From the NCBI RefSeq assembly GCF_017348835.2, contig NZ_CP071375.1: a stretch of DNA of 64,000 bases; one strand, 5' to 3'. This DNA is from Escherichia coli (GTDB lineage Bacteria; Pseudomonadota; Gammaproteobacteria; Enterobacterales; Enterobacteriaceae). This document shows positions 42,001 to 45,000 of the stretch, piece by piece. Position 1 is the stretch's first letter. The number at the start of each line of letters is the position of its first letter. The position numbers are program-made.

Positions 42001-45000
42001 CGAATTTATTCGATCTAGTAGTGTTTTTATGACGCTTTCCTGCACAAGCGGGGCAGCTTGCCTCTGCTCCAGATATAAGCTGTATGCCTGCAGAAAAGTG
42101 TTACCTCCGTTAAGTTGTCTTGCCAGGCTGTCTGCGAGATGATGAGACTCTCTTGCCCCAAGATGGTCCCAAAGTCCACCAGGAATAGGCTCTACACTAA
42201 AACCATCCATAAACTGGATATAATGAAGCCTCATATTACGGCCTCCTATAGTAATAGTGTCATTCTGATTGCTTCTTGCAATATGTCGTAAAGCCTCCAG
42301 CTCATTTTCCGGCAATACACTTCCATTAGAAAAATTTAATATGACTGGCATATTATTATCCTTTTCAACCCATTTTGTGAACTATATTGGTAACAAGAGT
42401 CAACATACCGCTCATGATATGTGAATAAAACAATACAATTTTTAATAGAATATTATTGCATGCATGTTTTTTCTTGCTACAATAAACACAAGTATGCAAT
42501 ATTGTAAACACTTTTTTATAAAAAGGAATTATAATGCCGATGAATACTACAGGTACGTCTTTCAGCTCTTTTGGTATAAGTTGCCATAGAGAAAACTCCT
42601 TCAGGAACTCTTTCCGAGGGAAGAATGATGAGGTCATAAAATGTTCAATGGGAGAACGGACGATTCGCTTTTCTGTTCGCAAATTTAGCGGCAATATACT
42701 GGATACAGTGAGTAGGCAGAGTACTAAAGATATTAATGGGTGGATAAAAGATGAACGGATAGTATATCCCTCAAGGGTGATCAACCAGGAGATTGATAAT
42801 TACTGTTTTCAAAAAAATGCAAAAATTTCCACTGAAGAGAGGCAAAGGGTCTTTTCTCTTGTGAGTCAGGAATATCAACTAACTCTTGATGTTAAGGCAG
42901 CACAAAGTTCTATTAATCATGTGATAATGGGGAATGCTTCTTTTGGCAAGAAAATAGATGCTCTTTGTGATAGTATGAGCCGGGATGTAAAAAATCGTAC
43001 GGCAGATAGCATAGCAAACTTGCTTGCAGACAAGTTTTACCAGAAACATATCGAGCCGGATATTGATATTGTAAAACTACGAAATGAGATCCCAGATTAT
43101 TTGAGGTGTGCTATACAGGCATAAGTCTCTGGGAGACGACTAGGTCAGTATCATTGGTTTTGCTCTGGTAAAAAGAGACGCGGAAAAATGCACAACAGGC
43201 GCCATACGTCATGCATGGATTAGGATTGTTCATTTTTATACCATTTGTTGTTTTTTATAGCTTTTTGCTAAAAGGGTGAAGAAAAAACGTTCTCCAAAAT
43301 TAGATTGCAACTGTTTGATTTTATGGATAGAGGCATGCAGTTTACTCGACAGTAAAAAGCATGCCAAATTTGCTATTAACCTTTTGAATATAAAACACTA
43401 ATCGTCTATTTCTGTTGCCTTCTTATTCAGCAGACGAGAAGCGCGCCAGTAAACCAGCAACATCAGGCCCATTACGATAGTCAGCGTAATGCTGGTGGCT
43501 GCACCAAACGGCCAGTCACGAATATTAAGGAACTGTACCTTGATGACGTTACCGATCAGCAGGTTTTTCGCACCGCCCATCAGGTCGGACACATAGAACA
43601 GGCCCATCGCTGGCAGCATCACCAGCAGACATCCGGCAATAATCCCCGGCATCGTCAGTGGAATAATGATGCGGATAAAAGTCTGTAACTTGCTGGCACC
43701 GAGATCGCGCGCCGCCTCAAGCAACGGCTTATCCAGTTTTTCGATACTGGAGTACAGCGGCATCACCATAAACGGCAGCAGAATGTAAACCAGACCGATA
43801 ATCACCGCACTGGGCGTGAACATGATACGGATTGGTGTGTCGATAACGCCCAGCCAGAGCAAAAACTCGTTGAGATAGCCTTTGGTGCTGAGGAAAATTT
43901 TCAGCCCGTAGATGCGAATCAGTGAGTTGGTCCAGAAGGGAACAATCAGCAGAAACAGCAGCAGCGGACGCACCTTGTGTGGCAGCTTCGCCAGAAACCA
44001 GGCAAACGGGTAGCCCAGCACCAGGCAGGCGAGGGTGGCGATCAGCGCCATATTCAGCGAGTGCAATAGCACTTCAAAATAGAGCGGATCGAGCAGACGT
44101 GTGTAGTTATCCAGCGTAAAGACCATTTTGACAAAACTGGCGTCGTCGCGGGTCAAAAAGCTGGTGCCAATGATCATCAGGTTGGGCAGAAAGACAAACA
44201 ACACAAGCCAACCGACAATAGTGACAATCACTACATTCTGGAACTTACTTGTGTTCTTCATCAGCCAGTACGACCTCCCAGCTTTCTACCCAATTAATGG
44301 CCATTTTTTGGTCGAGAGAGTGGTCAAAGTCAGGATCGTCTTCATTGAAGAATTCGCTGACCATCACCATCTTGCCATTTTCCAGTTCAACAACCGACTC
44401 CAGCGTCATGCCTTTGTAGTTACGCTCGCGAACGTAACCAATCAGCCCTTCAGCGTGGTTGTCGTCGTTAATCTCTTCAACACGTAAGTCTTCCGGGCGC
44501 AGCAGAACATGCAGTTTTTGCCCCGGTTCAACGGCGAAGTTAACGTAGATATTACATTCGCGGCCTTCAACGTTGGCGCGTACGCGCTGCTCGTCGAGAC
44601 GTTCGATGACAGTGGCGTTAAACATATTGATTTCGCCAATGAACCCGGCAACAAACAGGTTTTTCGGCTCTTCGTAGATTTCACGCGGCGTGCCGTCTTG
44701 CTCAATGCGACCATCGCGCATCACCACAATCCTGTCCGACATGGTGAGTGCTTCTTCCTGGTCGTGAGTCACGAAGACGAATGTAATGCCAAGCTTACGC
44801 TGTAACGCTTTCAGCTCGTTCTGCATTTGCTTGCGCAGTTTGTAATCCAGCGCTGAGAGCGACTCATCCAGCAACAACAGACGAGGCTTGTTAACCACCG
44901 CGCGAGCAATGGCGACGCGTTGCTGTTGACCACCAGAGAGCTGATGCGGTTTACGTTGAGCGAAGGTTTCCAGCTGCACCATCCGCAGGGCTTCCATCAC

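Follow-up and report, generated by a model that had tools for sequence, protein, structure and literature searches.

Positions 43125-43429 of a 64,000-nucleotide stretch of Escherichia coli DNA (NCBI RefSeq assembly GCF_017348835.2, contig NZ_CP071375.1; this whole stretch is called "the window" below) are best explained as the right attachment site (attR, P-O-B') of a lambda-like prophage that sits in the last codons of potB and uses a lambda-family tyrosine integrase, a reading to which we assign a probability of roughly 95%. A 12-bp match (CCTTCTTATTCA) between the phage attachment site (attP) and the potB codons for ...NKK directly abuts, in attP, six codons and a stop (ATEIDD-stop), and because attP thus holds both the core and this short tail, recombination leaves potA-potB with a complete open reading frame (ORF). 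The native VELE-stop tail of potB, the potC ribosome-binding site within that tail (AAGGTGGA), and potC-potD move to the other prophage end (attL). There, potCD would have lost the potA promoter as well as its translational coupling to potB, and its remaining expression would have to stem from phage-side transcription, most likely co-oriented read-through from the int region. The window does not extend to the left part of the element, which holds attL, the integrase gene (int), and the excisionase gene (xis); these are described from the near-identical proxy PE164, the closest genome (99.8-99.9% identical over window positions 1-50000), in which window position 1 corresponds to position 2120816.

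The junction at the 3' end of potB

The potB gene of the window equals that of K-12 through ...RLLNKK and thereafter reads ATEIDD-stop in place of VELE-stop, such that the encoded protein ends in ...YWRASRLLNKKATEIDD (in longer form, ...LVYWRASRLLNKKATEIDD) before the stop codon. In K-12, the gene ends in ...RLLNKKVELE, and its own TGA overlaps the potC ATG as ATGA. In a profile search, the chimeric PotB obtained a full-length score against the PotB equivalog NF007044 (E=3.7e-166), and its residues 1-281 are identical to the solved E. coli PotB chain 8Y5F_B. The sole hint on a role of the C-terminal tail is that the deposited PotB chain 8Y5G_B ends at residue 279; the paper on the PotD-PotABC cryo-electron microscopy structure contains no statement on the tail (PMC11414716). 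The promoter side of potAB is intact, and the potB ORF is complete. The features of the junction and of the adjoining host genes, in window coordinates, are as follows.

43207-43417, strand not applicable: P arm of attR, a block common to potB prophages with different cargo (ykgJ, espK, espM)
43291-43299, plus strand: candidate arm-type integrase (Int) binding site TCTCCAAAA, 127 bp from the core
43332-43365, strand not applicable: P-arm inverted repeat (hairpin), at nt 33-66 past the new potB stop when read on the potB strand
43398-43418, minus strand: substitute potB 3' end, Ala-Thr-Glu-Ile-Asp-Asp plus TAG (from sequence, ORF, and attP contig L015)
43398-44261, minus strand: chimeric potB, 287 aa (residues 1-281 from the host, 282-287 from the phage)
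43418-43429, strand not applicable: att core identity block CCTTCTTATTCA, CCTT(C/T)TTATTCA (from the four-way attR/attP/attL/attB alignment)
44245-45381, minus strand: potA, upstream of potB in the operon (ORF; annotated in PE164 and K-12)

All four attachment sites were recovered. We took attB from K-12, attL from PE164, attR from the window, and attP from a metagenome contig (L015), which has a ykgJ-like gene on the P side, int and xis on the P' side, and no pot genes. The sites are given below in full and then divided into left flank, core, and right flank.

attB (K-12): CCACCTTCTTATTCAGCAAACG; divided, ...GAGTTCCA CCTTCTTATTCA GCAAACGAG...
attL (PE164): CCACCTTTTTATTCATAAGGCG; divided, ...GAGTTCCA CCTTTTTATTCA TAAGGCGGG...
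attR (window): GTTGCCTTCTTATTCAGCAGACG; divided, ...TTTCTGTTG CCTTCTTATTCA GCAGACGAG...
attP (metagenome contig L015): GTTGCCTTCTTATTCATAAGGCG; divided, ...TTTCGGTTG CCTTCTTATTCA TAAGGCGGG...

By sequence, attL, attR, attB, and attP align as the Campbell model demands, with the common core at both prophage ends and with attL and attR rebuilding a natural attB (CGATCATTCGAGTTCCACCTT[T/C]TTATTCAGCAGACG) and a natural attP (GTTGCCTTCTTATTCATAAGG). The core 12-mer CCTTYTTATTCA has one copy in the window against 0.05 expected, and when window positions 42900-43900 were compared with 5,426 complete E. coli genomes (megablast), K-12-type genomes aligned only rightward from 43418. The contiguous attP of L015 already encodes ...NKKATEIDD-stop in frame with the core, and therefore the substitute 3' end is phage sequence that was in frame before integration. 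An IMG/VR viral contig (L014) also begins with the attP-specific junction. Matches in phage collections were rejected as free-phage attP, being excised prophage regions that keep potC and potD or that end at attR.

The point of strand exchange could be narrowed by a single polymorphic base. Position 43422 is C in attR and T in the attL of PE164, and it is polymorphic in hosts as a synonymous AAG/AAA lysine codon of potB (C in K-12, T in 1,340 unoccupied genomes), with attL copies bearing C or T according to the host. C was present at all four of the family-A attP/attR loci examined (window, L008, L009, and L015). When the empty site was rebuilt from the left half of attL and the right half of attR with the T kept, megablast recovered it from 1,340 genomes, with an identity of >=99% in 1,334, so T is a natural host allele and C the phage allele; strand exchange would therefore have taken place to the right of 43422, inside TTATTCA. 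We infer that the crossover uses the 7-bp overlap TTATTCA (43423-43429), which has the length expected for a lambda-type overlap. In attP, the inverted repeat GCCTT / AAGGC flanks CTTATTCAT, which resembles the C-O-C' layout of lambda; the core here can be written GCCTT-C-TTATTCA-T-AAGGC, as compared with the lambda core, CAGCTT-T-TTTATAC-TAAGTTG.

These results bear directly on the original prediction, which had proposed from the window sequence that a prophage junction lies in the potB 3' end, that potB reads normally to ...RLLNKK and then carries six phage codons (ATEIDD) in place of VELE, and that the phage supplies this substitute end. The four-site alignment, the comparison of the ORF with K-12, and the tail already present on L015 bear out all three points, and the possibility that the K-12 terminus might be identical was examined and found not to be the case. 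Effector-locus DNA rather than potC/potD had been expected to follow potB; indeed, potC is absent left of potB in the window, and genes for a WxxxE effector, four NleG proteins, and espW stand there instead. The att core had been placed at 43410-43420, which was right in locating it at the junction and wrong in position, the true block (43418-43429) lying about 5-10 bp rightward.

That the junction might be an assembly artefact, or a non-phage rearrangement that by chance ends in potB, appears extremely improbable. The misassembly that the original prediction had named as its possible undoing is countered by many independent complete genomes that have the junction: the interrupted genomes sampled share the exact same break point, at least 1,020 genomes carry this attR type, matching attL, attR, attB, and attP were all recovered, and the rebuilt empty site occurs in 1,340 genomes. 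We found nothing in favour of an artefact, the only related observation being strain KE51 (see below), which indicates that prophage-prophage recombination can scramble such ends.

Replacement of a target-gene 3' end by phage sequence is classical for e14 at icd (PMC6379469). As with e14 and phage 21 at icd, the insertion here lies in the 3' end of a coding gene, attP holds in-frame replacement codons, and the phage restores a complete ORF (for e14, PMC6379469); moreover, the Int of phage 21 is the closest named free-phage integrase (~44-45% identity). The two situations differ in that icd closes its transcription unit and nothing is orphaned, whereas here potC-potD lose promoter and translational coupling; in that e14 duplicates 163 bp of icd almost conservatively, whereas only 12 bp are in common here; and in that the six substitute codons bear no homology to VELE. 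A second P-arm family (L010, L011), ~88% identical over 77 nt at the junction, gives the tail VSELDD-stop. Both tails, ATEIDD and VSELDD, have six residues and are acidic, as the native VELE is acidic, and this likeness may reflect either selection on PotB or overlapping protein-binding sites in attP; the bases of the substitute codons also form a candidate, near-consensus integration host factor (IHF)-like motif (AATCNTCTANTTC, read by eye) that adjoins the core.

Attachment arms, recombination genes and related prophages

By comparison with other lysogens, whose matches to the P arm begin at window position 43168 or 43207 (megablast), the arm is a conserved block beside variable cargo. The 9-mer TCTCCAAAA, not rare in itself, has one copy in the 64-kb window, and its distance from the core is exactly 127 bp at each of the five attR loci compared (window, L008, L009, L010, and L011), which span two divergent arm families. 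The P' arm of attL contains three tandem copies of this 9-mer, of which the third has one mismatch. We regard these copies, which are distinct from the core and occur in both arms, as the expected, putative arm-type Int sites.

The P arm also contains the inverted repeat at 43332-43365 (centroid fold z = -2.0 in the window; in the attP contig, the 14-bp stem is perfect and z = -4.4), and arm family B has a different inverted repeat, GCCGTT...AACGGC, at about the same place (read from the alignment). This hairpin may bind a protein as a palindrome in the DNA, or it may act in the RNA as a 3'-end or processing element. As a canonical intrinsic terminator it was rejected, having no U-tract, and a terminator scan found no canonical intrinsic terminator past the new potB stop. 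Rfam and tRNA scans returned nothing within 43125-43420.

The left end of the prophage in PE164 has the order potD, potC, attL, two small genes, int, xis, and exo. The distance from attL core to attR core is 53,099 bp, with potC-potD at the far end beside int/xis; the attL core lies 8.4 kb and int ~6.2-7.3 kb upstream of the window start. The original prediction had put potCD past the far end of the prophage and hence apart from the potA promoter, and PE164 agrees, with potCD 53.1 kb away; the integrase that it expected left of the window is likewise there in PE164, though not by much. PE164 Int (372 aa) has an arm-binding domain (PF09003, E=3.7e-21) and a catalytic domain (PF00589 Phage_integrase, E=4.1e-19), and its R226, K249, H327, R330, H350, and Y359 align with all six catalytic residues of lambda Int (R-K-H-R-H-Y), R212, K235, H308, R311, H333, and Y342. 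An 89-aa coding sequence (CDS) that overlaps the int start is annotated as excisionase and matches PF07825 Exc (E=7e-5); judged from these genes, the element should still be excisable.

The overall plan resembles that of lambda attP/Int/Xis: arm-binding and catalytic Int domains with the catalytic residues kept, xis beside int, inverted, putative core-type half-sites around a 7-bp T-rich segment, one P-side arm site at about -127, and three tandem P'-side sites. It departs from lambda in that the integrase is merely 35-37% identical to lambda Int (37% in the alignment, 35% by tblastn), the att sequences are unrelated, attB lies within a coding region and not between gal and bio, and one clear P-arm site was found as compared with two in lambda.

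Several points weigh against this reading of the junction. attL is outside the window and known from PE164, and PE164 differs from the window by ~1.3 kb more sequence somewhere in 25001-35400 and by one extra T in the espW T-run (a 1-nt difference). For the 7-bp overlap, and for what the arm sites do, the argument is one of analogy with lambda. In addition, the PE164 prophage holds an IS3 element and a truncated replisome-organizer gene, and may therefore be defective for lytic growth even if able to excise.

Prophages at this site are common. A 201-bp K-12 probe showed a continuous potB-potC junction in 3,800 of the 5,426 complete genomes, and in the genomes without a continuous junction, as sampled, the match stops or starts at the same 12-bp block; occupancy of the site among complete E. 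coli genomes is therefore up to 30%. The literature describes PP_potB in O157:H7 clade 8 (PMC9997748), a potB prophage among the ancestral group I/II sites of O145:H28 (PMC7067040), the Phi-CFT073-potB prophage (PMC4632033, PMC3573123), and potC as an insertion site of Shiga toxin (Stx) phages (PMC8065619); insertion has been described as disruption of potAB-CD, with potC-site phages sharing one highly homologous integrase type (PMC9453080). All of these, including the Stx1/Stx2 phages at potC known in Shiga toxin-producing E. coli (STEC) negative for the locus of enterocyte effacement (LEE) and in O113:H21, have the same insertion point, at the potB 3' end before potC. Int is 99% identical among PE164, O157:H7 SS TX 313-1, and the attP contig, the P and P' arms are the same, and in seven Stx1a prophage records a P arm and core identical to these stand close to the right end. 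The element differs from its relatives in the attR-side cargo (here espM-like, four NleG, and espW) and in an extra two-gene cassette that the PE164 lineage has between the P' arm and int. In sum, it is one more ordinary case of a prophage family and an insertion site that are both well documented.

The extra cassette is a ~1-kb insertion between the P' arm and int in PE164 (L001 17560-18470) and in IMG/VR contig L014. In PE164 it comprises two opposite-strand genes, one for a hypothetical protein of 67 aa and one for a DUF2335 membrane protein, with a GC-rich hairpin after them. The O157:H7, O111:H8, and other potB lysogens lack this insertion, and their int ends 167 bp from potC.

We also tried to pair the family B arm (tail VSELDD-stop) with its own attL through strain KE51, which proved unworkable because the left end of the KE51 element differs and has another integrase. 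In KE51 (NZ_CP141080.1 2422000-2471500, L018), the prophage that ends at the potB attR starts beside a DUF72 gene and yecN, near cmoA, cmoB, and torZ, with a different integrase there, which suggests a large chromosomal rearrangement through prophage-prophage recombination. The KE51 prophage also has genes of the enterotoxin-A family and for a subtilase-family AB5 toxin B subunit.

Prophage body and effector cargo

The remainder of the window left of the core is prophage. It opens with an immunity/replication region at the window start, continues with genes for lysis, head, and tail, and leads up to the effector cargo. The features are as follows.

1-43417, strand not applicable: lambdoid prophage body (annotated products of the PE164 match; ORF layout)
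38291-38866, 39151-39738, 39806-40441, and 41701-42351: four genes of the NleG family (U-box-type effector; PF06416, E ~1e-43 to 1e-46)
40569-41626, minus strand: espW (named from the PE164 annotation)
42534-43124, plus strand: EspM-like effector of the WxxxE family of the type III secretion system (T3SS), 196 aa (NF053507 T3SS_WxxxE_eff, E=2.5e-56), the last cargo gene before att
43111-43233, minus strand: truncated 5' remnant of a ykgJ-family (cysteine-cluster) gene, 40 aa (ORF starts MNNPNPCMTYGACCAFFRVSFY...)

The four NleG genes flank espW and, together with espW and the WxxxE effector gene, make up a compact island of T3SS effectors that has the tail-fibre genes on one side and attR on the other. 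The remnant at 43111-43233 matches residues 20-41, near the N-terminus, of an intact 128-aa ORF beside attP in L015, as well as an annotated YkgJ-family CDS in L008, with nucleotide homology from near 43168. Being a truncated ykgJ gene, it implies that the effector island replaced the rest of that gene; the island (espM-like, four NleG, and espW) would thus have been swapped in beside the conserved P arm, truncating the ykgJ-like gene that was originally attP-proximal. Elsewhere, the cargo upstream of the P arm is an intact ykgJ-family gene (L008, L015), espK (L009), or a methyltransferase gene (L010, L011).

In the window, one T is missing from a T-run of espW at ~41099, which splits the gene into overlapping ORFs of 175 aa and 192 aa; the PE164 espW is intact (1,059 nt). 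The split is either real, as a frameshift or a phase-variable tract, or a homopolymer sequencing error.

Other features lie further left. Genes for tRNA-Met and tRNA-Arg(UCU) are found in the 8752-10028 region, followed by the small RNA (sRNA) STnc100 (9774-9966), the anti-GcvB sRNA AgvB (9967-10028, minus strand), and a 616-aa ORF. In Stx phages, this is the position at which stx is carried; no stx-like product occurs among the PE164 annotation names for the matching region, where no ORF scan aimed at stx was made. An Rfam match to the sok antitoxin RNA at 5170-5344 (113 bits) implies a hok/sok-type toxin-antitoxin locus in the early prophage region.

Fate of potC and potD

At attL, potC keeps its native Shine-Dalgarno (SD) sequence and start codon (AAAAAGGTGGAACTCGAATG) and stands there without the upstream operon and without the stop-start overlap with potB. 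In all lysogens fetched, potC and potD are annotated intact, the PotC accession being that of K-12 (WP_000580316.1). No measurement of the effect of the potAB/potCD split on polyamine uptake was found in the searchable literature. The original prediction had suggested that the split could alter spermidine uptake unless a promoter on the phage side makes up for it; this stands as a hypothesis, and the scans for such a promoter gave no convincing candidate.

We see about an even chance that potCD is still expressed, either by phage-side read-through (int/xis/exo) or from a weak promoter in or near the P' arm, at a low cost of lysogeny; PotABCD would then still assemble, with potC using its own ribosome-binding site. 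The retained SD sequence and start codon favour this, as does the placement of int, which in typical potB lysogens is co-oriented with potC and stops 167 bp before it, with no terminator-like site on the potC strand found by a scan of the int-potC spacer. That potC/potD are annotated intact also in lysogens with no more than a 132-nt piece of int (O111:H8) or with an insertion sequence in int points the same way. In published RNA sequencing data (PMC7649339), fold changes were given for potC in STEC O26 97-3250 and for potD in 97-3250 and O145:H28 4865/96, strains not confirmed as potB lysogens, and the potB prophage has been described as ancestral in O145:H28 (PMC7067040).

The promoter scans argue in the other direction. 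A search of attL and the int region of PE164 for a sigma-70 promoter facing potC gave no convincing one, with hits at or below the shuffled rate (best match TTGATA-16-CATTAT, 9/12, ~230 bp upstream of potC); the scan of the O157:H7 lysogen locus gave zero hits; and no hybrid junction promoter was found by eye. A compensating phage-side promoter was therefore set aside as unsupported, the scans being no better than shuffled background. Continued expression is further opposed, in the window lineage, by the ~1-kb cassette with its two opposite-oriented genes between int and the P' arm. In a repressed lysogen, moreover, transcription of the int region is, as in lambda, expected to be low, which also counts against it.

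Somewhat short of even odds, in our judgement, is that potCD is largely silenced or mis-dosed, with PotABCD-dependent spermidine uptake reduced in lysogens, a loss that would be tolerated since E. coli synthesizes polyamines itself and can also import them through other transporters. Consistent with this, 53 kb lie between potCD and the one annotated promoter side of the operon, potC no longer has the ATGA overlap that couples its translation to potB, the scans yielded no good promoter, and the term used in the literature is disruption of potAB-CD (PMC9453080). Silencing is harder to reconcile with interruption of up to 30% of complete genomes and no decay of potC/potD in the lysogens inspected. 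It also sits poorly with the complete potB ORF kept by the phage, which would be pointless with a dead transporter, although the tail may instead reflect protein-binding sites in attP. On balance, we rank continued expression via phage-side read-through slightly above silencing.

Whichever applies, a large share of E. coli has potAB and potCD tens of kb apart, and the exact coordinates of the core, crossover, arm site, and substitute codons ease the design of attB/attP polymerase chain reaction (PCR) assays. We hold it unlikely that the split is not neutral in the following way: potCD might be transcribed only by int-potC read-through, which would tie the supply of PotC and PotD to the regulatory state of the prophage, and the conserved P-arm hairpin might serve as the new 3' end of the potAB transcript. 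If so, spermidine uptake and PotD-dependent regulation would follow prophage state in up to 30% of E. coli genomes.

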